Assembly (NCBI GenBank): GCA_902625415.1
Contig: CACOBG010000006.1
Coordinates: 496 to 64,495, forward strand
Origin: an uncultured SAR86 cluster bacterium
GTDB taxonomy: Bacteria; Pseudomonadota; Gammaproteobacteria; Magnimaribacterales; AG-339-G14
Direction of reading: 5' to 3'
Length of the DNA: 64,000 nt
Shown: one piece after another, positions 25,427 through 46,281 of the stretch
Layout of the letters: every line of letters begins with the position of its first letter
Numbering within the stretch: the first letter of the stretch is position 1
Notes under the pieces: generated by a model
The model's database searches: none
Told to the model about the DNA's origin: nothing
The model's input: only the letters and a program-made list of their open reading frames with translations
Program-made: the position numbers and the translations under genes

Positions 25427-26317
25427 ATGCATATCAAAGGATCAATAACCGCTTTAGTTACTCCAATGAATGATAAAGGAGAGCTAGATTATGATTCTCT
25501 TGAAAAGCTAATTAACTATCAAATAAATTCAGGAATTTCTGGATTGGTTGCAGTTGGAACAACAGGAGAGTCTGCAACTATAGATTTTAAAGATCATATC
25601 AAGCTGATTGAATTTTTTGTAAAAATTAATAAAGGTAGAGTTCATATAATTGCAGGTACTGGAGCGAATTCTACTGAAGAGGCGCTTCATTTAACTAAAG
25701 AAGCAAAAAGTGCAGGTGCCGATGCAGCTTTGTTGGTCTCTCCATATTACAACAAACCTCCTCAAGAAGGTATCTTTCATCATCATATGAAGATCGCAGA
25801 TGAAGTAGATATCCCTCAAATTCTTTACAACGTCCCTTCTAGAACTGCTAGCTTTATTGAGCCTGAAACCGTTCAAAGGCTTTCATCACATAAAAATATC
25901 ATTGGTATAAAAGATGCTACTGGAGACATGAAAAATCATTCTGAGGTTTTAAAATTATGTAAGGAGGAAATTGAAAACAACAACTTTTTATTATATTCAG
26001 GAGATGATTTTTCTTCATTAGAATTCTTGAAAAATGGGGGTCATGGAACAATTTCAGTTACCTCAAACGTTGTACCTGATATTGTTTCAGAAATATGTAA
26101 GGTTGTTGATACTGATTATTCAAAAGCTAAAGAACTTGACGATAGTTTAGAGGTTCTTAATAAGAACTTATTCTGCGAATCTAACCCAATTCCTGTAAAA
26201 TGGGCACTTTACAAAATGGGATTAATAAAAAGGGGTATTAGATTGCCTTTGTTAGAACTTAATGGTGCCTTTAAGGAGCCTTTAGAAAACTCTCTAAAAA
26301 AGCTTAATTTGATTTAG
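25427..26317 (+). CDS. dapA: 4-hydroxy-tetrahydrodipicolinate synthase
   Basis: GTTGES, GTGANST, SPYYNKP, LYNVPSRT, GIKDATG, SNPIPVK. Confidence 0.98.
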   Translation: MHIKGSITALVTPMNDKGELDYDSLEKLINYQINSGISGLVAVGTTGESATIDFKDHIKLIEFFVKINKGRVHIIAGTGANSTEEALHLTKEAKSAGADAALLVSPYYNKPPQEGIFHHHMKIADEVDIPQILYNVPSRTASFIEPETVQRLSSHKNIIGIKDATGDMKNHSEVLKLCKEEIENNNFLLYSGDDFSSLEFLKNGGHGTISVTSNVVPDIVSEICKVVDTDYSKAKELDDSLEVLNKNLFCESNPIPVKWALYKMGLIKRGIRLPLLELNGAFKEPLENSLKKLNLI

Positions 26318-27301: not shown

Positions 27302-28015
27302 ATGGAAAAGAAAGAATTACTAACAAAAGGAAAAGCTAAAGAACTTTATAAGACAGCAGATGAATCTAAGCTTGTAATGGATTTTACTGATGATACTTCT
27401 GCATTTGATGGAAAAAAAATAGAACAATTAGCTGGAAAGGGCACTGTCAATAATAGATTTAATAATTTTATTATGAATCATCTAGACTCCAAGGGCATAG
27501 CTTGCCATCTTCTAGAAGAACTAAATGATCACGAGAGTTTGGTTTTATCTTTAGACATGTTTCCAATTGAATGTGTCGTGAGGAATTATGCTGCAGGGAG
27601 TATTTGTAAGCGCCTGGGTCTTGAAGAAGGGATGAAGTTTGAAAACCCTATTTTCGAATTTTTTTATAAAGATGACGACCTAGGTGATCCAATGATAAAT
27701 GATAATCACATAATATCTTTTGGCTGGGCAGAAGCAGATGATATAGATGCTTTAAAAAAACTCACATTAGAAATTAATGATCATTTAGTAGATTTATTTC
27801 TTAAAGCGGACTTAATTCTCGTTGATTTTAAATTAGAGTTTGGAAAAAACTCAGGAAAAATATATCTTGGAGATGAATTCACTCCAGATGGTTGTAGAGT
27901 TTGGGATAAGGAAACTAAAAAGAAACTAGATAAAGATAGATTCAGACTCGGTCTGGGCGACGTAGTAGAGTCATATCAGGAAATAGCTCACAGAATTGGT
28001 ATTGATCTTAAATAG
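27302..28015 (+). CDS. purC: SAICAR synthetase
   Basis: GKAKELY, DDTSAFDG, PIECVVRN.AAGS, FYKDDDLGDP, LVDFKLEFG, DEFTPDGCRVWD, LDKDRFR. Confidence 0.98.
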   Translation: MEKKELLTKGKAKELYKTADESKLVMDFTDDTSAFDGKKIEQLAGKGTVNNRFNNFIMNHLDSKGIACHLLEELNDHESLVLSLDMFPIECVVRNYAAGSICKRLGLEEGMKFENPIFEFFYKDDDLGDPMINDNHIISFGWAEADDIDALKKLTLEINDHLVDLFLKADLILVDFKLEFGKNSGKIYLGDEFTPDGCRVWDKETKKKLDKDRFRLGLGDVVESYQEIAHRIGIDLK

Positions 28016-28021
28016 CTTTTG

Positions 28022-29695
28022 ATGAGTTTTTTACAGAATAAAAAGAAAATTAAAGGAGCTGAGCTTTTTATTCGATGTCTAGAAGAAGAAGGCGTAGAGT
28101 ACATTTTTGGTTTACCCGGAGAGGAAAATCTCGATTTTCTTGAATGTCTTTGTAAATCAAACAAAATCAAACTTATTTTAACAAGGCACGAACAAGGAGC
28201 AGGATTTATGGCAGCTACCTATGGAAGGTTAACTGGAAAAGCTGGTGTGTGTTTGACAACTTTAGGCCCAGGTGCAACCAATTTAGTCACTTCTGCAGCT
28301 TATGCCCAACTTGGAGGAATGCCGTTAGTGATGATAACTGGTCAAAAACCAATAAAGAATACTAAGCAAGGTAAATTCCAAATTTTGGATGTTGTAGATT
28401 TAATGCAGCCAATAACTAAATATACCCATCAAATATCTTCAGCTAATATGATCGCCTCAGAAGTGAGAGAAGCTTTTAGGCTTGCCGAAGAAGAAAGACC
28501 AGGCGCAGTTCATCTTGAATTACCTGAAGACATTGCAGTTGAAGAAACAAGGAGAAGACCTTTGCTAAAAAGTGTCGTACGACGTCCTGTACCAGATGAA
28601 AAGTCTATAAATCAAGCTGTAAAGTTGATTGAAGACTCGAAAAGACCACTTCTGGTTCTAGGAGGCGGAGCGAACAGAACTAGCACAAGTAAAATGCTTC
28701 TGGAATTTGTTGAGAAAACAAAAATTCCTTTCATCACAACTCAACTAGGTAAAGGTGCTTTAAATGAGAGACATGAAAATTTTCTTGGGTGCGCTGCTCT
28801 GACTGATGGAGATTTCGTTCACAGAGCTATTGAAGAATCAGATCAAATTATTACAGTCGGTCAAGATAACTTTGAAAAGCCTCCCTTTATTATGCAAGAA
28901 AAAAAAGGAACCAAGGTCATACATATTGATCACATAACAGCAAGTGTCAATGGTATCTACTTTCCGCAATTGATGGTCACTGGAGACATAGCGAATGCTA
29001 TTTGGCAAATCAAAGAAAAAATAAAAATAAACCCCCAATGGGATTTTTCAAAAATGCTTCAAACGAGAAAAGCTCATTTAGAACATTCTGAAAAAATCAG
29101 AGAGGATAGTAGATTTCCTATTTTTCCTCCGTACTTAGTTCGACAAATAAGAAATGCAATGCCAGAGGATGGAATAATTACGATGGATAACGGCGTATAT
29201 AAACTATGGTTTGCTAGAGGTTATCCTGCACTCAATCAAAATACCGTTATTTTAGACAACGCCCTTGCAAGTATGGGGGCCGGGCTACCATCTGCAATTA
29301 CAGCCGCAATGATATTTCCAGATAAAAAAGTTATTTCTGTATGCGGAGATGGAGGCTTCATGATGAATAGCCAGGAGTTAGAAACTGCAGTAAGGCTAGG
29401 AGTGAATCTTACAGTAGTAATTCTAAATGATAAGGCTTACGGAATGGTTAAATGGAAACAAGAAAATATGAAGTTTTCCGATTTTGGTTTAAGTTTCGAA
29501 AACCCTGATTTTGTAAAATATGCTGAGGCCTATGGTGCCAAAGGTCATCGAATTAATAATGCTGAAAACCTAATAAAAACCTTAAAAGCTTGCTTAGATT
29601 CTCCCGGCGTTCATGTTATAGATTGTCCTGTTGATTATAGCGAGAATGATAAGATTCTAAATAAAGATTTAAAAAAAATTAGTTCAGCTTTATAA
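28022..29695 (+). CDS. ThDP-dependent enzyme of the acetolactate-synthase-large-subunit-like family; candidate 2-oxoglutarate decarboxylase
   Basis: GAELFIRCLEEEGVEYIFGLPGEENL, RHEQGA, TLGPGATNL, GDGGFMMNSQELETA, NDKAYG, DCPVDYSEN. No small regulatory subunit is adjacent. An alternative TTG start lies at 28019. Confidence 0.85.
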   Translation: MSFLQNKKKIKGAELFIRCLEEEGVEYIFGLPGEENLDFLECLCKSNKIKLILTRHEQGAGFMAATYGRLTGKAGVCLTTLGPGATNLVTSAAYAQLGGMPLVMITGQKPIKNTKQGKFQILDVVDLMQPITKYTHQISSANMIASEVREAFRLAEEERPGAVHLELPEDIAVEETRRRPLLKSVVRRPVPDEKSINQAVKLIEDSKRPLLVLGGGANRTSTSKMLLEFVEKTKIPFITTQLGKGALNERHENFLGCAALTDGDFVHRAIEESDQIITVGQDNFEKPPFIMQEKKGTKVIHIDHITASVNGIYFPQLMVTGDIANAIWQIKEKIKINPQWDFSKMLQTRKAHLEHSEKIREDSRFPIFPPYLVRQIRNAMPEDGIITMDNGVYKLWFARGYPALNQNTVILDNALASMGAGLPSAITAAMIFPDKKVISVCGDGGFMMNSQELETAVRLGVNLTVVILNDKAYGMVKWKQENMKFSDFGLSFENPDFVKYAEAYGAKGHRINNAENLIKTLKACLDSPGVHVIDCPVDYSENDKILNKDLKKISSAL

Positions 29696-29791
29696 AAACA
29701 TTCAAACTTATAAATCATTATTAGATAACTACCTTCTTATTCTTAAGTTCACAAAAAATTATTCAATTTTTATCAAGAGAAATTTATAAGA

Positions 29792-29823
29792 TATAATTGT
29801 CACTAAATGTTCCCAAAAAGGAG
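29792..29823 (+). promoter_or_regulatory. Putative -10 box (TATAAT 29792-29797) and strong SD (AAGGAG 29818-29823) for the acylating aldehyde dehydrogenase
   Basis: Read directly from the 134-bp intergenic region. The SD is 6 nt from the ATG. Confidence 0.55.
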
Positions 29824-29829
29824 TAAACA

Positions 29830-31218
29830 ATGCAGGAAATAGATACTTCTAAAGTAAAAGAAAGTTCAATTAATGATCTTGTAGAAAGAGCGCGTATCGC
29901 TCAGGCCAAGTATGAATCATTCTCACAACAACAAGTTGATGCAGTTGTTCGAGATATTGGAAAATTTGTTTACGACAATGCTGAGTCATTAGCAAAAATG
30001 GCCGTTGAGGAGACCGAAATGGGATCCTATGAAGATAAAATACTCAAAAATAAGGGAAAAGCCCGAGTTATTTGGAATAATTTGAAGGACAAAAAGTCTA
30101 GAGGTGTGATCGGCGAAGATAATGAAACTAACCTAGTCTTTGTCGCAAAACCAATGGGAGTTGTAGCTGCTGTAACTCCTGTTACTAATCCAATTGTAAC
30201 TCCAATGTGTAATGGCATGTTTGCTCTTAAAACCGGTAACGCAGTTATTTTTGCATCTCATCCTAAGGCTCAAAAATGTGCAGAGTACTTAACCTCTGAA
30301 TTTATGAAAATAGTTAAGTCTCATGATGGTCCAGATAATCTCATTCAAGTTGTTACTAATGGGTCAGTAGAAAAGACTCAACAACTCATGCAATCTGCTG
30401 ATGTAGTTGTTGCTACAGGAGGCGGAGCGATGGTTAAATCAGCCTATTCTTCAGGTAAACCATCCTTTGGAGTAGGAGCTGGGAATGTACCAGTTATAAT
30501 AGATAGAAATGTAAATTTAAAAGAAGCTGTTGAAAAAATTGTAGACGGGGCGTCTTTCGATCATGGCATCATTTGCTCTCATGAGCAATTTGTAATAGCT
30601 CCTGAAGAAAATTTCGATCAAACAATAGAATTATTCACAAATACAGGAAAGGTATGGTTTACGGATGATAAATCACAAATACAAAAGCTTCGCGAAGTCG
30701 TATTCCTCGATGGCCACTTGAATAAGGATGTGGTGGGAAAATCGGCAAGCGATGTTGGTAAAATGGCAGGCATTGAAGTCCCCGACTCCGCAAAATTGAT
30801 TTTGCTTCCAGCAGATGGATCGGGAAATGAAGATGTTCTTGCTAAAGAAAAGCTCTGTCCAGTGATAGCAATAGTACCTTATTCAACTTTTGACAATGCA
30901 GTTGCTATGGCAAAAGCAAATCTTTTAGTAGAAGGCGCAGGTCATTCGGCAGCTTTACACTCAAATGATGATAAAAACATCAAAATGGCAGGCATTGAGC
31001 TTCCCATCAGTCGCCTTGTTGTCAACCAACCAAGCTCTACTACTGCTGGGGGCTCTTTAACAAATGGTTTTGCACCGACTACTACTTTAGGTTGTGGTTC
31101 ATGGGGAGGTAATTCAATTTCTGAAAATCTTGATTACAAGCACTTAATGAATGTTTCTAGAATTGGAAAAGTTATAACTGATAAAGAAGTTCCATCAGAT
31201 GAAGAAATCTGGGCTTAA
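29830..31218 (+). CDS. CoA-acylating aldehyde dehydrogenase, succinate-semialdehyde dehydrogenase / succinyl-CoA reductase type (Clostridium SucD-like)
   Basis: AVEETEMGSYEDK, VAKPMGVVAAVTPVTNPIVTPMCN, ATGG..MVKSAYSSGKP..GVGAGN, catalytic GIICS, KEKLCP, GAGHSA, PTTTLGCGSWGGNSISENL, C-terminal VPSDEEIW. These closely track my recollection of C. kluyveri SucD. Confidence 0.8.
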   Translation: MQEIDTSKVKESSINDLVERARIAQAKYESFSQQQVDAVVRDIGKFVYDNAESLAKMAVEETEMGSYEDKILKNKGKARVIWNNLKDKKSRGVIGEDNETNLVFVAKPMGVVAAVTPVTNPIVTPMCNGMFALKTGNAVIFASHPKAQKCAEYLTSEFMKIVKSHDGPDNLIQVVTNGSVEKTQQLMQSADVVVATGGGAMVKSAYSSGKPSFGVGAGNVPVIIDRNVNLKEAVEKIVDGASFDHGIICSHEQFVIAPEENFDQTIELFTNTGKVWFTDDKSQIQKLREVVFLDGHLNKDVVGKSASDVGKMAGIEVPDSAKLILLPADGSGNEDVLAKEKLCPVIAIVPYSTFDNAVAMAKANLLVEGAGHSAALHSNDDKNIKMAGIELPISRLVVNQPSSTTAGGSLTNGFAPTTTLGCGSWGGNSISENLDYKHLMNVSRIGKVITDKEVPSDEEIWA

Positions 31219-31366
31219 TCATTTAATTTTTTAGAGTTATCCTAAATTTAGCTTTTTTGAGCTCTTATAATTTTTTTGCATAAAATAAATAATAAGTTTA
31301 TACAATTAATTATAAAAAATTGCTGTACCTTATTTTTTTATATAAATGTGGTACAATAAATTTGAG

Positions 31367-32791
31367 ATGGACAAGAAATATTTATTCAAAAGAAACAACG
31401 TATGGTGGGTGAAACTAGCTGTACCTGTGTACCTTAGAGACAAGTTAGGTTTTGATTTAAGAAAATCTACAGGAGAAAAAGATTTGGAAAAGGCGCTTCT
31501 TGTGAGAGATAGCATTTTAAGTGAATTTAAAGCTAAGTTTTCTTCAGACATAGATCGTAAACCTTCTTCAGAGACAAACTTTTCAAACAAAACAACATAT
31601 CTTGATTATGCATCAACTACTCCAGTTGATGAAAGAGTCATTGAAAAAATGAAAGAATGCTTATCTTTTGAAGGGGCTTTTGGAAATTCAGGTTCTAGAT
31701 CGCATGTGTATGGTTGGAAAGCAGAAGAACTCGTTGAGGAAGCTCGTCTTAACGTATCGAATTTATTAAGTTGTGATCCAAGAGAAATTATTTGGACTTC
31801 TGGAGCTACTGAATCCGATAATTTAGCAATTAAAGGTGCAGCTTATTTTTATCAATCAAAAGGCAGACACATAATAACATCCAAAATTGAGCATAAAGCT
31901 GTACTCGATGTGTGTAGGCAGCTTGAGAAAGAAAACTTTGAAGTCACGTATTTGGATCCTGATGAGAGCGGTGTTATTTCTCCTCAAGCAGTCAAAGATG
32001 CAATTAGAGAAGACACAGTTTTAGTTTCGCTTATGCAGATTAACAATGAAATTGGAGTTCTCAACGATATTGATCAAATAGGATTAATTACTAGGGAAAA
32101 CGGCACCATCTTTCATGTTGATGCAGCTCAAAGTGCAGGAAAAATTCCCATAAATCTAAGTAAACTTAATGTAGATTTAATGTCTTTTTCCGCTCACAAA
32201 ATATATGGACCTAAAGGAATTGGAGCTTTGTATATTCGAAGAAAACCAAGAGTCAGATTGCAACCGCTTTTCCATGGCGGAGGTCAGGAAAGAGGAATCA
32301 GAGCAGGAACTTTACCCACTCATCAGATAGTAGGAATGGGAGAGGCTTTTAGAATCGCTCAAGAACAAATGGAGATTGACCACAAAAGGCTTACCAACTT
32401 TAGATCCATTCTATGGAATGGTCTAAAAGATATGGAAGAAGTTTATATAAACGGATCTATAGAAAATGGTTTTCCCGGCATATTCAACATGTCGTTTAAC
32501 TTTGTAGAAGGCGAATCTCTAATTATGGCTCTTAAAAATATTGCTGTTTCATCTGGATCAGCATGTACATCAGCTAGTCTCGAACCTTCCTATGTTTTAA
32601 GGGCACTTGGTAGGCCTGATGAGCTGGCACACAGTTCAATTAGATTTTCTTTCGGAAGATTCACAAAGAAAGAAGAAGTTGAGAACACCGTAGATCTTGT
32701 AAAAAATTCTGTATCTCAATTAAGAGAAATTTCACCTCTTTGGGAAATGTACCAAGATGGTATTGATTTAGATAAGATTGAATGGGCATAA
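31367..32791 (+). CDS. iscS: IscS cysteine desulfurase with a fused N-terminal DUF6538-like (integrase arm-type) domain
   Basis: IscS core: [37 protein letters not shown]. It is preceded in frame by [33 protein letters not shown]...A. The start at 31367 is preferred because a TG-N-TACAAT box (31349-31357) lies within the ORF-track codons from 31346. Confidence 0.9.
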
Positions 32792-32812: not shown

Positions 32813-33235
32813 ATGGCATATTCACAAAAAGTAGTTGATAAATTTGAAGAAACTTTAAAGAATCCAGAAGGCGCAAGCGTCGGAAGATGGAAGCCGGGGG
32901 ATAAAGATTTCCACAGGGTTGGAACTGGTATTGTAGGAGCTCCAGCATGCGGCGATGTCATGAAATTACAAATTAAGTGTGAGAATATCGAGGGCGAAAA
33001 TAGAATTGTTGATGCTAGATTTAAAACTTATGGCTGTGGGTCTGCAATTGCGTCTAGCGGCCAATTAATTGATATGCTAAAAGGTAAGACTCTAGAAGAG
33101 GCTCAGAATATTTCTAACCAAGAAATCGTAGATATTTTAGAATTACCTGCAATCAAAATTCACTGTAGTGTTCTTGCAGAAGAAGCTATTCACAGAGCTA
33201 TAGATGACTTTAAAAGTTTAAGAAATAATGACTAA
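32813..33235 (+). CDS. iscU: Fe-S scaffold IscU (variant LPAIK motif)
   Basis: MAYS.KV, VGAPACGDVMKLQIK, ARFKTYGCGSAIASS, KIHCSVLAEEAI. Confidence 0.96.
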   Translation: MAYSQKVVDKFEETLKNPEGASVGRWKPGDKDFHRVGTGIVGAPACGDVMKLQIKCENIEGENRIVDARFKTYGCGSAIASSGQLIDMLKGKTLEEAQNISNQEIVDILELPAIKIHCSVLAEEAIHRAIDDFKSLRNND

Positions 33236-33963
33236 TGCCAAAAATAAAAGTTTTACCTCATGAAGAGCTTTGTCCAGAAGGGATTGAGTTTGAAGCAGAA
33301 GAAGGCAAGTCTGTCTGTGAAAACTTATTAAATCATTCCGTTGATATAGAACATGCTTGTGAACTTTCTTGTGCATGCACAACTTGTCATGTAATTTTTG
33401 TTGAAGGATTTAACTCTCTTAATGAGTCATCAGATGACGAAGAGGATCTTCTAGATAAAGCTTGGGGCTTAGAACAAAGATCAAGATTGAGTTGCCAAAC
33501 AATTGTTTCTAATTCAGACTTAACCATCGAAATTCCGAAATATACAATAAATATGGTTTCTGAGAATCACCCAAAGCCTAAGAATGATTTAAGTAGAGAA
33601 ATATCATCAGCTGACTTTAATATTTCTAACTCTGCCGCTAAACACCTTAATTCTATGGTTGCATCTGAAAATTCTTCTGGGGTTAGAATTTCCCTTAAGG
33701 ATTCGGGATGTTCTGGCTTTGCCTACCAAATTGATCTAGTAGAAAAAATTGAAGAAAATGACTTTAATGGATTAATAAATGGAGTTAATTTATTCATACA
33801 AGATAAAAGTTTTATTTTCCTGAAAGGAACAAAAATAGATTTTGTGAAAAAAGACTTAAACGAAGAATTAGTTTTCTTAAATCCAAATGTTTCTGCGGAA
33901 TGCGGATGCGGAGAGAGTTTTAACTTTGATTCTAGTTTGATAAAAGATTTGTCTACAAGATAG
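33235..33963 (+). CDS. Fusion of ISC [2Fe-2S] ferredoxin and an IscA/HesB-family A-type carrier
   Basis: N-half MPKI.VLPH.ELCPEG, HACELSCACTTCH, SRLSCQ, IPKYTIN. C-half ISNSAAKHL, SGCSGFAY, NPNVSAECGCGESF. No stop or Met at the junction. Confidence 0.9.
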   Translation: MPKIKVLPHEELCPEGIEFEAEEGKSVCENLLNHSVDIEHACELSCACTTCHVIFVEGFNSLNESSDDEEDLLDKAWGLEQRSRLSCQTIVSNSDLTIEIPKYTINMVSENHPKPKNDLSREISSADFNISNSAAKHLNSMVASENSSGVRISLKDSGCSGFAYQIDLVEKIEENDFNGLINGVNLFIQDKSFIFLKGTKIDFVKKDLNEELVFLNPNVSAECGCGESFNFDSSLIKDLSTR

Positions 33964-40932: not shown

Positions 40933-40968
40933 TTATATTAATTATGCAATATAATGCAGATTTTTGAG

Positions 40969-41340
40969 ATGAATGCGCCGAGATATTTAAATTTATTTAA
41001 GATTGCCTTGCCTTTGCCAGGAGTCTCATCTATTTTGCATAGATTATCCGCCGTAGCAATTTTTGTTCTATCTTTGCCGATGTTTGGTTTGCTGGTTTTC
41101 TCTTTAAGTTCAAGGAGTAATTTCGATATAGTTCTCTTAATTTTTGAAAATTTATTTTTTAGAACTTTATTCACTGCTTTTGTTACAGCAATTTTCTATC
41201 ATTACATTTCCGGAATAAGGCACTTGGTAATGGATTTTGGATATTGGGAGACTCTAAGGGCTGGAAGGATGTCCGCTCTAGCAACTTTTATTTCAACTGG
41301 TTTTTTCTTTTTAAGTTTCATATTCTTAACATGGTTATAA
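40969..41340 (+). CDS. sdhC: Succinate dehydrogenase cytochrome b556 subunit
   Basis: APRYLNL..I.LP...VSSILHRLS, YHYISGIRHLVMD. The start at 40969 is preferred because TATAAT 40950-40955 overlaps the ATG at 40954. Confidence 0.93.
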   Translation: MNAPRYLNLFKIALPLPGVSSILHRLSAVAIFVLSLPMFGLLVFSLSSRSNFDIVLLIFENLFFRTLFTAFVTAIFYHYISGIRHLVMDFGYWETLRAGRMSALATFISTGFFFLSFIFLTWL

Positions 41341-41693
41341 AACTTTTAAAATTAAGGAAAACAGGTGTATTTGATTACATCTTTGTTAGAGTAACTGCAG
41401 TCATTCAGGCAGTATATTTTTCAGTTATAACCTTCTATTGGTTAGTGAATAGAGACTTTAATTACCAACAATTCTCCGGCTTTTTTGATATTCTCCTCAT
41501 AGAAATTTTTACGATAGTAGTAGCGATGTCAATTGCTTATCACTCGATAAAAGGAATTTGGAACGTAGCTACAGATTATCTTACTCAAGCGCAAATTGGC
41601 GCCTCTGCTAAAGTTCTCAGACCAATGGTCATAGGCTTTAGCTGGTTTCAAGCACTTGGACTCATTTTTTGTAGTTTTTTTATTCTAGGTTAG
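41331..41693 (+). CDS. sdhD: Succinate dehydrogenase membrane anchor subunit
   Basis: GVFDY..VRVTA, YHS.KG.W.V.TDY. The start at 41331 is preferred over the ORF-track start 41244. Confidence 0.88.
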
Positions 41694-41698
41694 TAATT

Positions 41699-43504
41699 AT
41701 GGCAATGAACGGAACAGGAACCTTATTAGACGCATCTACTTTGCCCGTCAAAGAATTCGATGGAATTATTGTTGGAGGAGGTGGATCTGGGATGATGGCC
41801 TCTCTCCAGTTGGCAAAATCTGGAATGACAACTGCCGTAGTATCTAAAGTATTTCCAACACGATCTCACACAGTTTCAGCACAAGGAGGAATAACTTGTT
41901 CTATACAAAGTGCTGATCCTGACGATGATTGGCGTTGGCATATGTTCGACACTGTCAAAGGATCAGATTTTATAGGAGATCAAGATTCAATAGAGTACAT
42001 GTGCAAAGAAGGTCCTGAGGCTATATTTGAGTTGGAAAACATGGGTTTACCATTTTCTAGAACTGAAGAAGGTAAGATTTATCAAAGAGCTTTTGGAGGT
42101 CAGTCAAAAGACTATGGTAAAGGAGGCCAGGCAGAAAGGACATGTGCCGCCGCCGATAGAACCGGTCATGCTCTTTTACACACACTTTTTCAGGCTAATG
42201 TTAAAGCAGGAACAAATTTCCTCTCCGAATGGTTTGCAGTGGATCTTGTTAAAAATGAAAATGATCAAGTTGTAGGTGTCATAGCCTTCGAAATTGAAAC
42301 TGGCGAACCATACTTTTTAAAGTCAAAAGCTACTGTTCTTGCAACTGGAGGCGCAGGAAGAATTTATCAAACAACTTCAAATGCTCTTATTAATACTGGA
42401 GATGGAACAGGCATGGCTCTCAGAGCGGGCTTTCCGGTTCAGGATATGGAGATGTGGCAATTTCATCCTACTGGAATTCATGGTCACGGAACTCTTGTAA
42501 CGGAAGGCTGTAGAGGAGAGGGTGGCTATTTAGTAAATAAAGATGGTGAAAGATTTATGGAAAGATATGCTCCTAACTACAAAGACCTAGCTAGTAGAGA
42601 TGTTGTAGCAAGATCGATGTTCACAGAAATTCTTGAAGGTAGAGGATGTGGTCCAGATGCAGATCATGTTTATCTAAAACTGGATCATTTAGGACCTGAG
42701 ATTGTTCATAAGAGATTACCTGGCGTAACTGAGTTATCTAAAAGATTTGCTCATGTCGATCCTTCTGAGCACCCAATTCCTGTAGTCCCTACTTGCCATT
42801 ATGCTATGGGCGGAATTCCTACAAACGTGCATGGTCAGGTTATTTCCCAAAATCCAGATGGAACAGATAAAATCATAGATGGTCTTTACGCCGCAGGAGA
42901 AGCAGCTTGCGTGTCTGTTCATGGCGGTAATCGCCTTGGTGGAAATTCTTTACTTGATTTAATTGTTTTTGGAAGGTCAGCGGGACTTCATATCGAAGAA
43001 AGTTTCAAGTCTGGAATAAAAATGGATGATCCCTCGTCTGATGATATTAATTATGCTCTAAGAAATCTAAACAGAGTGAATGTTAGCCAATCTGGGGAAA
43101 ATTTTGTAAAAGTAAAAAAAGATTTGCAAAAAACCATGCAAATGAATTTTGGAGTATTCAGAACAGAAGAATTAATGGTGAATGGAATTAAGGAGGTTTC
43201 TGACCTCAGAGAAAAATCTCAAAATATTCACCTTGCCGATAAATCATCTCAGTTTAATACTGCTAGAGTTGAGGCGTTGGAACTTCTCAACTTAATTGAG
43301 GTTGCTGAAGCCACAGCAATTAGTGCAAATGAGCGAAAAGAAAGTAGAGGTGCTCACTCAAGAGAAGATTATCCTGAAAGAGATGATGATAATTGGCTCA
43401 AACACTCGATTTACTTTTCTGAAAATAAGCAAGTCTCAAAAAGAGATGTTAATTTTAGACCTAAGCAGGTTCAAGCTTTTCAGCCCATTGTGAGAACTTA
43501 CTAA
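41699..43504 (+). CDS. sdhA: Succinate dehydrogenase flavoprotein
   Basis: [16 protein letters not shown] (FAD His), [35 protein letters not shown]. Confidence 0.99.
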
Positions 43505-44244
43505 TGAATTCTATTGCTGCCAGCGAGATTAAGACTCTTAAAGTAAGTATTTATAGATACGATCCTCTAAAAAAAGAAAAGCCTTATATGCAGGATTTTG
43601 ACATCGATATACCTGCTGAAAAAGATCTCATGGTTTTAGATGTTTTGATGCTTGCTAAAGAAGAGGATCCATCAATCTCTTTTAGAAGGTCTTGTCGTGA
43701 AGGAGTTTGTGGATCAGATGGTTTAAACATTAATGGTAAGAATGGTCTTGGATGTATAACGCCATTATCTGATGCTGTAAAATCCAATAAGCTTGCAATT
43801 AGACCACTGCCAGGACTACCTGTAATTAAAGATCTTACGGTCGATATGAAACAATTTGTAGATCAGTATAAGAAAGTAAAGCCATATCTCATTACCGACA
43901 AAAAAGTTGACACCAAACAAGCAATTCCTCAAACAATTCAGGAAAGAGAAAAACTTGATGGGCTTTACGAATGCATAATGTGTGGCTGTTGCTCTACCGC
44001 TTGCCCGTCTTTTTGGTGGAATCCTGATAAATTTTTAGGTCCAGCGGCTCTACTTCAAGCCTATAGGTTTATTGCCGATAGCAGAGACACAGCTACTGAC
44101 GAAAGATTAGAACAACTGGAGGATGCCTTTAGTGTTTTCAGATGTCATGGAATTATGAACTGCGTTTCAGTCTGTCCTAAAGGCTTAAACCCTACAAAAG
44201 CAATCGGTGAAATTAAAAAAATGTTAGTAAAAAGGGCTTTATAA
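43504..44244 (+). CDS. sdhB: Succinate dehydrogenase Fe-S subunit
   Basis: RSCREGVCGSDG, CIMCGCCSTACP, CHGIMNCVSVCPKG. Confidence 0.99.
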   Translation: MNSIAASEIKTLKVSIYRYDPLKKEKPYMQDFDIDIPAEKDLMVLDVLMLAKEEDPSISFRRSCREGVCGSDGLNINGKNGLGCITPLSDAVKSNKLAIRPLPGLPVIKDLTVDMKQFVDQYKKVKPYLITDKKVDTKQAIPQTIQEREKLDGLYECIMCGCCSTACPSFWWNPDKFLGPAALLQAYRFIADSRDTATDERLEQLEDAFSVFRCHGIMNCVSVCPKGLNPTKAIGEIKKMLVKRAL

Positions 44245-44254
44245 TACTAACACT

Positions 44255-45412
44255 TTGAATTTACACGAATATCAATCTAAACAACTCCTTGAAGACTTTG
44301 GCCTACCCACAGCAAAGTCAGTTGTAGCCTTTTCTGTAAAAGAAGCTTCCGAATTACTCAGTGAATTGAGTGGCAAAGAATTTGTTGTCAAGGTTCAAGT
44401 TCATGCAGGCGGAAGAGGAAAAGTGGGGGGAGTCAAAATAACTGATAAGAAAGATGAAATTACAGAATTTGCAAAGGATTGGCTAGGAAAAAAATTTGTA
44501 AATCATCAAACTGGTGATGAGGGAAAACCAGTCTCTGCAATAATGATTGCAGAAAGTACGATTATCCAGAAAGAACTTTATCTTGGCGCTGTTATAGATA
44601 GGAGTTCGCAATCGTTGGTGGTGATGGCTTCACCAGAAGGCGGTATGGATATTGAAAAAGTTGCTGAAGAAAATCCTGAGAAGATTTTTAAGATCTATGT
44701 CAGCAAAAATAAAAAAGAAGATTTTGATATATCAACTCTAGTAAACGGTCTTGAGCTCTCTTCTTCACAAACCACTGAATTAAAAAAAGTAGTTACTGGG
44801 CTGATAAATTTATTTTTTGAAAAAGATCTTTCTTTGATAGAAATCAATCCCTTAGTTATAGATGAAAACGACTCTTTAAAGTGTTTAGACGTAAAAATAA
44901 ATATCGATGAAAATGCATTGTTTAGACAAGAAGGTCTTTTGGAACTTAGAGATTCTTCTCAAGAAAATCAAAAAGAAATTGAAGCAGCAAAATGGGATCT
45001 CAACTATGTGGCTTTGGATGGAAATATAGGATGTATGGTGAATGGAGCTGGTCTTGCAATGGCAACTATGGATATTATTAAGCTTTCTGGTGGATTTCCA
45101 GCTAATTTTCTAGACGTTGGAGGCACTGTAGACAAAGAAAGAGTTGCCGAGGCTTTTAAGATCATCCTTTCTGATGAAAAAGTTAAATCGGTCTTAATAA
45201 ATATTTTTGGTGGAATTGTAAGGTGCGATGTCGTTGCCTCTGGGATAGTTTCAGCAGTCTCAGAAGTAGGAGTTGATTTACCTGTAATAGTGAGACTGAA
45301 AGGTAATAATTCAGAAGAAGCAAAACAAATTCTTTCTGAAAGTGATCTAAATATTATTTCTGCAGATGACCTTTCAGAAGCTGCTGAATTGGCAGTTAAA
45401 AATTCATTATGA
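44255..45412 (+). CDS. sucC: Succinyl-CoA synthetase beta subunit (TTG start)
   Basis: [57 protein letters not shown]. Confidence 0.98.
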
Positions 45413-46281
45413 GTATCTTAATTAATAAAGATACTAAAGTAATTTGTCAGGGATTTACTGGGTCTCAAGGTACACTGCATTGCAGCCAAGCAATAGAGTA
45501 TGGAACTAATATTTTGGGTGGAGTAACTCCCGGAAAGGGAGGGCAAACTCATTTAAATCTTCCAGTCTTTAACTCCGTTCAAGAAGCAAAACAAGCTACA
45601 AAGGCTAATGCCAGTATAATTTTTGTTCCTGCTAAATTTTGTAAACCTTCAATAATCGAGGCAATAGAAAGCGGTATCGAATTAATAATCTGTATAACTG
45701 AAGGCATTCCAACCCTTGATATGTTAGAAGTCAAAGAACTTGCAGACAAGGAAGGCACTAGAATTATTGGTCCAAATTGTCCGGGAATAATCACTCCAAG
45801 CGAATGCAAATTAGGAATTATGCCAGGCTTCATTCATAGTCCCGGCAAGGTTGGAATTGTTTCTAGGTCGGGAACTCTAACTTACGAAGCAGTTGATCAA
45901 ACCACTAGAGTGGGCCTAGGACAGTCTACTTGTGTAGGTATTGGCGGAGATCCACTTCCTGGTACAAGCTTCATTGATGTTTTAAAACTATTTGAAGAGG
46001 ACCCACAAACTGAGGGAATTGTTATGGTAGGGGAAATTGGGGGTTCAGCCGAAGAAGAAGCCGCAGAATACATCAAAGAAAATGTTTCAAAGCCTGTTGT
46101 AGGATATATTGCGGGAGTAAGTGCACCCCCAGGAAAAAGAATGGGCCATGCAGGCGCAATAATCTCTGGTGGGAAAGGAACAGCAGCGGATAAATTTTAT
46201 GCTCTAGAAAATGCTGGGGTGAGGACTGTTCAAAGTCCGTCTGAAATAGGAAATTCTATTTTGGAAGAAATCTCTTCTTAA
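45409..46281 (+). CDS. sucD: Succinyl-CoA synthetase alpha subunit
   Basis: [48 protein letters not shown]. Confidence 0.98.

Follow-up and report, generated by a model that had tools for sequence, protein, structure and literature searches.

A gene pair predicted to convert 2-oxoglutarate to succinyl-CoA in place of the Kor module in a SAR86 genome

A bypass of the 2-oxoglutarate dehydrogenase (OGDH) step of the tricarboxylic acid (TCA) cycle was reportedly described in cyanobacteria by Zhang and Bryant in 2011. In this OgdA/SsaD bypass, a 2-oxoglutarate (2-OG) decarboxylase (SynPCC7002_A2770, sll1981 or MAE_06010) is combined with a non-acylating succinate-semialdehyde dehydrogenase (SSADH) (PMC5160925, PMC10418658). 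The Synechococcus A2770, sll1981 and Microcystis decarboxylases (KGDs) are strict for 2-OG and yield no aldehyde from pyruvate or four other 2-oxoacids (PMC10418658). In the SAR86 cluster, a KorAB 'alternative TCA cycle' has been reported for the families RedeBAC7D11 and Magnimaribacteraceae; all SAR86 families are said to have a functional TCA cycle, and the word 'semialdehyde' is absent from the main text of that report (PMC11582366). Here we describe a 64,000-nucleotide stretch of DNA from an uncultured SAR86 cluster bacterium (the window), in which a gene for a thiamine diphosphate (ThDP) enzyme of the OgdA/KGD family lies directly upstream of a gene for a CoA-acylating dehydrogenase of the SucD type. 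On sequence grounds we propose, with a probability of roughly 70%, that this pair forms a route from 2-OG through succinate semialdehyde (SSA) to succinyl-CoA that replaces the Kor module and carries neither lipoate nor Fe-S motifs.

The pair resembles the OgdA/SsaD bypass in its first enzyme, a member of family NF006187 with the ThDP motifs and the active-site lysines, in the pairing of a decarboxylase gene with an SSA dehydrogenase gene, and in a genome without OGDH. It differs in the second enzyme, which is of the CoA-acylating SucD type and belongs to a subfamily other than that of SsaD, with which it shares a short local match only. The product here should be succinyl-CoA rather than succinate, which would keep the thioester energy and leave SucCD in the cycle. 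With its cyanobacterial counterparts, the ThDP enzyme shares about 42% identity, and it falls into another clade; the pair, moreover, replaces Kor and does not fill an ancestral gap. With the SucD enzymes of C. kluyveri and C. difficile (8CEI-8CEK, PMC10249356), the dehydrogenase shares 54% identity (C. kluyveri), the catalytic Cys, His and Thr (here Ser), and Lys70 and Ser243. The clostridial enzyme, however, acts reductively in the anaerobic fermentation of succinate to 4-hydroxybutyrate and is encoded beside 4hbD, cat1 and abfD, whereas the host here is, judged by its genes, an aerobic heterotroph, lacks any gene for an iron-containing alcohol dehydrogenase (Fe-ADH), and is predicted to use the enzyme oxidatively within the TCA cycle. 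KorAB is predicted to bring about the same net conversion, from 2-OG to succinyl-CoA, and is found in the same slot between purC and iscS and in the same lineages. It depends on Fe-S clusters and on an electron carrier (in relatives a dedicated 676-aa GltD-like/ferredoxin fusion), whereas the pair is without Fe-S motifs and would use a free aldehyde intermediate. The closest ThDP homologues outside the order, in Sphingomonadaceae and a TARA lineage, are likewise arranged as decarboxylase, then dehydrogenase; their partner, however, is of the non-acylating ALDH21 type, the product would be succinate, and the genes are annotated as acetolactate synthase and aldehyde dehydrogenase.

In the searchable literature, no account was found of a natural pathway in which an OgdA-type decarboxylase supplies an acylating SSADH to make succinyl-CoA, in line with the sequence-only reading, which knew of no account of the combination. 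Papers naming both enzymes concern metabolic engineering only, where the two serve as alternative entries to SSA for the production of 4-hydroxybutyrate or 1,4-butanediol. The components and the OgdA/SsaD bypass are already known, and it is their natural combination into a predicted succinyl-CoA route that appears to be new.

The window is C6:496-64495 of a 1.22-Mb assembly in 25 contigs, estimated to be 90.6% complete. Below, G000 denotes this genome, f1 its family, and G007 a relative from the same genus. The features of the purC-iscS slot are as follows.

27302-28015, + strand, purC (TIGR00081 at 237 bits), conserved left flank of the replaceable slot.
28019 (TTG) or 28022 (ATG) to 29695, + strand, ThDP gene, 558 aa, Pfam TPP_enzyme_N/M/C, predicted 2-OG decarboxylase.
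Between the ThDP gene and the dehydrogenase gene, a gap of 134 bp.
29770-29797, + strand, promoter-like site TTATCA-16-TATAAT (consensus match only), followed by an AAAGGAG ribosome-binding site, up to 29829.
29830-31218, + strand, SucD-type dehydrogenase gene, 462 aa, predicted CoA-acylating SSADH (EC 1.2.1.76 family), predicted to act oxidatively.
31346-32791, + strand, iscS (TIGR02006 at 677 bits), its product extended at the N-terminus by about 80 residues, conserved right flank of the slot.
31346-31590, + strand, the N-terminal extension of IscS, Pfam DUF6538 match, the relocated N-terminal domain of the lost 676-aa GltD-like oxidoreductase gene.

Open reading frames (ORFs) and profile scans agree with the earlier observation of a ThDP enzyme without a regulatory subunit directly upstream of a CoA-acylating aldehyde dehydrogenase; no ilvH/ilvN-type small subunit and no alsD were found near the ThDP gene, the flanks being purC and iscS. 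The ThDP enzyme scored 857 bits on the NCBIfam model NF006187 (PRK08322), well over the cut-off of 509. A cyanobacterial KGD homologue, from Chlorogloeopsis, scored 878 bits on the same model, which indicates that the NCBI equivalog named "acetolactate synthase large subunit" includes characterised 2-OG decarboxylases. Cyanobacterial KGD loci were gathered by a genome scan for the motif NDGGYGLIEWK, which is encoded in the primers used to mutagenise the Microcystis KGD, and they include the locus of Microcystis NIES-4325, the source of the enzyme characterised in PMC10418658. The cyanobacterial N-terminus cited in the sequence-only reading was essentially right: the homologues start with MNTAELLVQCLENEGVEYIFGLPGEENL and the enzyme of the window with AELFIRCLEEEGVEYIFGLPGEENL.

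Alignment to the Microcystis enzyme (MaKGD) showed intact ThDP machinery. The catalytic Glu is E58 (E50 in MaKGD), the GDGG...ND motif is kept (GDGG434-437 as GDGG443-446, D462 as D471 in N470-D471), and M419 (M410) is the hydrophobic residue of the V conformation. K386, A408, Y465 and K471 are conserved as K395, A417, Y474 and K480, respectively. K386 and K471 are among the predicted 2-OG contacts of MaKGD (PMC10418658). These contacts come from docking into a model rather than from a crystal structure, and of the proposed binders (Q254, V382, K386, A408, L467 and K471) three are kept, as K395, A417 and K480. The genome's own IlvI-type synthase, encoded separately at C2:80012-81652, has Gln at both positions equivalent to K395 and K480. 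In the maximum-likelihood tree, the nearest neighbours of the ThDP enzyme are sphingomonad and marine TARA homologues with 67-72% identity. The ThDP gene and the SucD-type gene both have a dN/dS of about 0.05 against their closest relative, at a dS of 0.6-0.7, which is unsaturated. We regard the ThDP enzyme as a 2-oxoacid decarboxylase of the OgdA/KGD family, predicted to act on 2-OG.

An identity as acetolactate synthase was considered and rejected. The enzyme stayed under the cut-offs (in brackets) of the acetolactate synthase models AlsS NF006378 at 456 bits (510), TIGR02418 at 411 (551) and the biosynthetic TIGR00118 at 385 (538), there is neither a small subunit nor alsD nearby, and the IlvI-type gene exists apart from it. 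The exact NDGGYGLIEWK motif was also seen in KGD genes of Thiofaba (L101), Halothiobacillus (L131), metagenome-assembled genomes of Gammaproteobacteria (L031/L055) and Nitrospirota (L028/L099); the presence of such genes in sulfur-oxidising chemolithoautotrophs and Nitrospirota indicates that the OgdA-type enzyme is distributed more widely than cyanobacteria.

The best match of the dehydrogenase in the Protein Data Bank (PDB) is C. kluyveri SucD (CkSucD, 8CEI), at 535 bits and 54% identity over 451 residues, that is, over the full length. Against AdhE, EutE and acetaldehyde dehydrogenases it scored about 300-312 bits, and against PduP about 180 bits. Its top NCBIfam matches are the N-terminal half of AdhE, SauS (395 bits) and EutE-type models, all under cut-off, in a library that holds no SucD model. 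CkSucD has the catalytic Cys242 and His364/Thr365, with Lys70 and Ser243 coordinating the distal carboxylate and Thr395 in a polar pocket; at the positions of Lys70, Ser243 and Thr395, PduP has Leu158, Val331 and Leu483 (PMC10249356). The catalytic residues are represented in the enzyme of the window by C249, H372 and S373 (in place of Thr365), and the residues of the carboxylate and pocket by K77, S250 and T404. K73 and T119 further match K66 and T112 of CkSucD. The gene context of clostridial SucD (4hbD, cat1, abfD) is not reproduced: no Fe-ADH gene, the family of the clostridial 4-hydroxybutyrate dehydrogenase, exceeded the cut-off anywhere in the genome, and the neighbours are purC and iscS. 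The homologues retrieved with the SucD-type protein were all marine variants of at least 88% identity, and neither an outgroup nor a donor lineage was among them. Fe-S motifs were found in neither protein of the pair. An assignment to SauS, the sulfoacetaldehyde enzyme, was tried and set aside, the 395 bits being below the threshold of 600 and not distinctive.

The distribution of the pair was examined in 151 genomes of the order, searched with NF006187, the SucD-type protein, sucA and korA. This order has four families, which in genome size (about 1.2, 1.3-1.8, 1.2-1.5 and 0.7-1.1 Mb), GC content (about 34%) and distribution of Kor agree with the four SAR86 (Magnimaribacterales) families of PMC11582366; f1 would then be RedeBAC7D11. 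NF006187 was found above cut-off in 14 of the 151, and the SucD-type protein, at 83-94% identity, in exactly those 14 genomes. The two genes are unlinked in three of them (G035, G055 and G111), on different contigs or 34 kb apart, and both are still present, which argues for functional coupling rather than hitch-hiking. The promoter-like site ahead of the SucD-type gene fits its location elsewhere in these three relatives, although promoter and terminator scans gave nothing better than shuffled sequence and the site at 29770-29797 is not enriched. The distribution of sucA is quite different: it was seen only in families f3 and f4 and is missing from all 81 sampled genomes of f1 and f2. Since most of these 81 do not have the pair, the pair does not track the loss of sucAB, contrary to the co-occurrence that the sequence-only reading had led one to look for. 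What the pair does track is Kor. korA is present in most f1 and f2 genomes, and among the 41 genomes of f1, 29 have Kor only, 10 the pair only, none both, and two neither (these two are 76-78% complete). The exclusion has a Fisher p of 6e-8 with shared ancestry ignored, and every one of the four f1 genera includes Kor-type as well as pair-type genomes. Among the f2 genomes, the pair without Kor was found in three, both systems in one (G049) and neither system in four, one of these being the closed single-contig G009.

Other combinations were seen in the same sample. G132 has an intact Kor module (L160, G132:C2:45001-62650) together with pieces of NF006187 in two frames at a contig end (G132:C12:1-726) and no match to the SucD-type protein; these frameshifted fragments may be a decaying copy or come from a mixed-strain or chimeric bin. 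In genus g16 of f3, korA is found instead of sucA in G122 and G137 and together with sucA in G149, and korA plus sucA is also found in G086, a pattern which suggests that interchange between OGDH and Kor is ongoing elsewhere in the order too.

Synteny places the exchange at one locus. Immediately to the right of purC lies korB in Kor-type relatives and the ThDP gene in pair-type ones. In G007 and G011, the purC-iscS interval holds three genes, all on the opposite strand: korB, korA and a gene for a 676-aa protein; in G000, G035, G055 and G111, the ThDP gene occupies exactly the same interval. The relatives' KorB has 350 aa and KorA 610 aa; KorA contains POR and POR_N domains and scores 583 bits on TIGR03710. 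The 676-aa protein combines an N-terminal DUF6538-like domain, a GltD-type core (Fer4_20 and NAD(P)/FAD-binding) and two C-terminal CxxCxxCxxxC ferredoxin motifs. The closest solved relative of KorA is PDB 6N2N, which we take to be the 2-oxoglutarate:ferredoxin oxidoreductase of Magnetococcus, a 2-OG-specific enzyme. By motif count, the 1,636 residues of the Kor module hold about five [4Fe-4S] clusters, of which KorB is expected to have one and Fer4_20 and the dicluster domain two each; the pair totals 1,020 residues. The idea that the pair directly replaced OGDH was not borne out: what it replaced, at the same locus and in mutual exclusion, was the Kor module with its NAD(P)/Fe-S oxidoreductase, and OGDH was apparently lost earlier than the replacement of Kor by the pair.

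The replacement left a trace in iscS. Residues 3-60 of the 676-aa protein of G007 match the N-terminal extension of IscS at 74% identity, the DNA of G007 (L144:13224-13394) aligns in inverted orientation to 31540-31370 of the window at 73%, and DUF6538 matches both the 676-aa protein and the window's IscS. The extension is a scar of the Kor-module replacement, an inverted remnant of the 676-aa gene that is fused to iscS in the pair-type genomes G000, G035, G055 and G111. The DUF6538-like domain is in frame on IscS in G000, G035 and G111 and may have a function of its own, possibly a regulatory one. Family f2 shows several further arrangements of these elements: in G049 the kor module is followed by a divergent iscR-iscS-iscU-iscA-fdx-[ThDP-SucD]-ndk series; in G124 kor is deleted, purC adjoins iscR and the pair comes after fdx; and in G117 and G093 the order is purC-ThDP-SucD. 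The tree of the ThDP enzyme branches by family and genus, and synonymous sites have reached saturation in comparisons between genera, which indicates that the pair is old in these lineages and was not spread by a recent sweep.

The gene content of the genome is consistent with a cycle that lacks both OGDH and Kor. No intact sucAB was found elsewhere in the genome, as the sequence-only reading had expected: sucA had no match by profile (TIGR00239) or by tblastn with E. coli SucA, and sucB, aceE, aceF and lpd had none by tblastn. Neither an E2 acyltransferase of any complex (PF00198) nor the lipoyl synthase lipA (TIGR00510) was detected in the genome, and korA and korB were missing by TIGR03710 and by tblastn with KorA and KorB of the same-genus relative; the slot in question lies inside one contig of G000 and is filled by the pair. 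The genes acnB, icd (68% identical to E. coli), sdh, sucCD, fumC and that for isocitrate lyase are present. The sole citrate synthase homologue found is a PrpC-type bifunctional 2-methylcitrate/citrate synthase (G000:C1:20891-22012, NF009006, 601 bits), and no GltA-type enzyme was detected in the genome. One further, generic aldehyde dehydrogenase has no specific assignment. The E2 of 2-oxoacid dehydrogenases is missing from all 41 sampled f1 genomes, with E1, lpd and lipA also missing in G000; the family would accordingly be without pyruvate dehydrogenase (PDH). The genes for succinate dehydrogenase and succinyl-CoA synthetase are in the window:

40954-44244, + strand, sdhCDAB (TIGR02970, TIGR02968, TIGR01816, NF004616), succinate dehydrogenase.
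44255-45412, + strand, sucC, 56% identical to E. coli SucC (NF001913 at 532 bits for the sucC/sucD entry).
45409-46281, + strand, sucD, alpha subunit of the synthetase, 75% identical to E. coli SucD.

The ORF map and the profile and tblastn searches thus confirm the earlier description of sdhB abutting sucC (10 nt from stop to start) with sucA, sucB and lpd missing. sucCD is predicted to encode an ADP-forming succinyl-CoA synthetase and to consume the succinyl-CoA from the pair.

Partner genes outside the order bear on the product of the first enzyme. The nearest outside ThDP homologues, in Sphingomonas and the TARA marine lineage, are each followed by a gene for a 478-aa non-acylating aldehyde dehydrogenase. 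The best solved relatives of the TARA-lineage partner are Burkholderia structural-genomics entries (714 bits) and moss ALDH21 5MZ5 (564 bits); ALDH21 is given as an NADP-dependent SSADH (Kopecna et al. 2017, as cited in bioRxiv 10.64898/2026.01.13.699213). An aldehyde dehydrogenase gene lies beside the KGD gene in 76 of 142 fetched loci, five of them the query's own Sphingomonas/TARA loci. At cyanobacterial-type KGD loci, this aldehyde dehydrogenase is about 31% identical to the ALDH21-type partner and is putatively SsaD, by position. The nearest outgroup ThDP genes, P0014 and P0015, have no adjacent dehydrogenase. Three partner lineages, two of them nearest to enzymes acting on SSA (ALDH21 and SucD) and the third SsaD by position, are the strongest indirect evidence that the ThDP enzyme makes SSA.

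In the proposed pathway, the ThDP enzyme would decarboxylate 2-OG non-oxidatively to SSA and CO2. The SucD-type enzyme would then form a thiohemiacetal on Cys249, oxidise it with NAD(P)+ to the succinyl-thioester and transfer the succinyl group to CoA, which is the reaction of clostridial succinyl-CoA reductase in the oxidative direction. Acylating aldehyde dehydrogenases such as EutE and DmpF are reversible and are favourable in that direction; to our knowledge, no physiological oxidative use of SucD has been described, and this element of the route would be new. The retained SucCD would convert succinyl-CoA to succinate with substrate-level phosphorylation, giving a nucleoside triphosphate. 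The net reaction of the pair, 2-OG + CoA + NAD(P)+ to succinyl-CoA + CO2 + NAD(P)H, would equal that of OGDH and also that of KorA, KorB and the GltD-like/ferredoxin protein together. Both family memberships, the carboxylate-binding residues, the strict co-occurrence and the SSA-dehydrogenase partners in sister clades support this route; the substrates, the direction of the SucD step, the nicotinamide cofactor and the selective reason are inferred. The chemistry put forward in the sequence-only reading, down to SucCD, is thereby retained, and its evolutionary framing is changed, from sucAB to Kor. Given roughly five clusters in the Kor module and no Fe-S motifs in the pair, the saving of these [4Fe-4S] clusters, or oxygen tolerance in the surface ocean, would be a plausible selective reason.

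Several observations weigh against a 2-OG route. The likeness to OgdA holds for membership in NF006187 and for the N-terminus, but not as close orthology, the ThDP enzyme being about 42% identical to the characterised cyanobacterial KGDs and placed in a separate, well-supported clade. Between this clade and the cyanobacterial one, a long branch leads to PDB 13bb, an entry labelled acetolactate synthase. Four docking-predicted residues of the 2-OG pocket are changed (Q254 to T, V382 to N, H385 to Y and L467 to M). That Kor uses 2-OG in the relatives is itself an assumption, and PDH is missing family-wide, so that the distribution alone fits a role from pyruvate to acetyl-CoA equally well. G049 retains both Kor and the pair. 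The closed genome G009 has no intact Kor, pair or sucA; at its locus (L161, G009:C1:1040001-1060000) there are korB and only the last ~140 residues of korA, without a GltD-like gene. Together with the isocitrate lyase present in G000, G009 suggests that the step is not essential in the order and that the pair need not carry the main flux of the cycle.

Among the other explanations, a pyruvate bypass survives best. The ThDP enzyme would here convert pyruvate to acetaldehyde and the dehydrogenase would make acetyl-CoA, in replacement of a pyruvate or broad-specificity oxidoreductase in a lineage devoid of PDH. There is indeed no E2 in f1, hence no PDH in Kor-type or pair-type species, KorA and KorB match only subfamily-level models of 2-oxoacid:acceptor oxidoreductases, and AdhE and EutE models are the top matches of the dehydrogenase in the NCBIfam library, which is without a SucD model. 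The closest solved relative of KorA, however, is presumably an entry of the 2-OG type of 2-oxoacid:ferredoxin oxidoreductases. The dehydrogenase is far nearer to SucD (535 bits) than to acetaldehyde dehydrogenases (about 300-310) and keeps the distal-carboxylate Lys and Ser where PduP has Leu and Val (PMC10249356). The characterised NF006187 enzymes yield no aldehyde from pyruvate, and the sister-clade partners are SSADH-type ALDH21 enzymes. We consider a pyruvate bypass very unlikely in view of these results.

Still less likely is a route for another anionic 2-oxoacid, for instance from sulfopyruvate through sulfoacetaldehyde to sulfoacetyl-CoA or from 2-oxoadipate through glutarate semialdehyde to glutaryl-CoA, with the exclusion of Kor coincidental or indirect. 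Organosulfonates are plentiful as substrates in the sea, a sulfonate or a longer dicarboxylate would fit the conserved Lys and Ser as well, and the dehydrogenase has its 395 bits on SauS while the non-acylating partners of the sister clades reach about 360 bits on SafD. These scores are nevertheless far under the cut-offs (600 and 700, respectively) and no better than those on AdhE or SSADH models. The pair is not flanked by Xsc, sulfite-exporter or sulfolactate genes but by dapA, bamC, purC and the isc operon, and an unrelated catabolism would hardly explain why kor is replaced at this very locus and why none of the 41 genomes of the family has both. Least probable of all is that the genes serve two separate functions, the ThDP enzyme as an acetolactate-type carboligase and the SucD homologue reductively in 4-hydroxybutyrate or GABA-related metabolism: the public annotation of the ThDP family ('acetolactate synthase large subunit'), the reductive direction of the known physiological SucD roles (PMC10249356), the promoter-like site before the SucD-type gene and its unlinked position in three genomes would fit, but the two genes co-occur in 14 of 14 genomes, unlinked cases included, there is no Fe-ADH genome-wide, and the ThDP enzyme has neither alsD nor a small subunit, scores below the AlsS cut-offs and coexists with a separate IlvI-type synthase.

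On balance, we lean towards viewing the predicted 2-OG to succinyl-CoA pair as a fourth natural solution to this step of the cycle, next to OGDH, KorAB and the cyanobacterial OgdA/SsaD shunt, which bypasses succinyl-CoA; it would be kept as a long-lived presence/absence polymorphism against Kor at one locus and maybe selected by iron scarcity or oxygen stress. If the biochemistry holds, another variant of the TCA cycle would exist in a heterotrophic group that ranks among the most abundant in the surface ocean, regaining, with two soluble enzymes and no Fe-S-rich Kor module, the succinyl-CoA and the one ATP or GTP that the cyanobacterial shunt forgoes. The order then offers a natural experiment, in which close relatives have OGDH, Kor, the pair, Kor plus the pair, or none of these, and, with Kor and the pair alternating at one locus, the hypothesis that trace-metal or oxygen costs decide between them becomes directly testable with data on iron and depth in the ocean. 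Pipelines of the KEGG style would label such genomes 'TCA incomplete', or the genes as acetolactate synthase and fermentative SSADH. For metabolic engineering, the pair would be a compact, lipoate-independent module from 2-OG to succinyl-CoA that should tolerate oxygen, again if the biochemistry holds.

The remaining features around the slot are these.

25427-26317, + strand, dapA.
Between dapA and purC, + strand, BamC-like lipoprotein gene.
After iscS, + strand, in this order: iscU, a fdx-iscA fusion, ndk, rodZ, ispG, hisS, bamB and der.

Some minor observations concern these neighbourhoods. On the TARA contigs L021/L022, the pair of ThDP and ALDH21-type genes is inserted between a PDDEXK (Hjc-like) gene and ybgC-tolQRAB; the same aspS-yebC-nuclease-ybgC-tol arrangement occurs in the window at about 16.5 kb, without the pair. 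iscR is missing from f1, and f2 genomes have one. The ORF at 33235-33963 of the window is a fusion of fdx and iscA, which are two separate genes in G111, G011, G049 and G124; the order there, iscA and then fdx, is the opposite of the domain order in the window's fusion.

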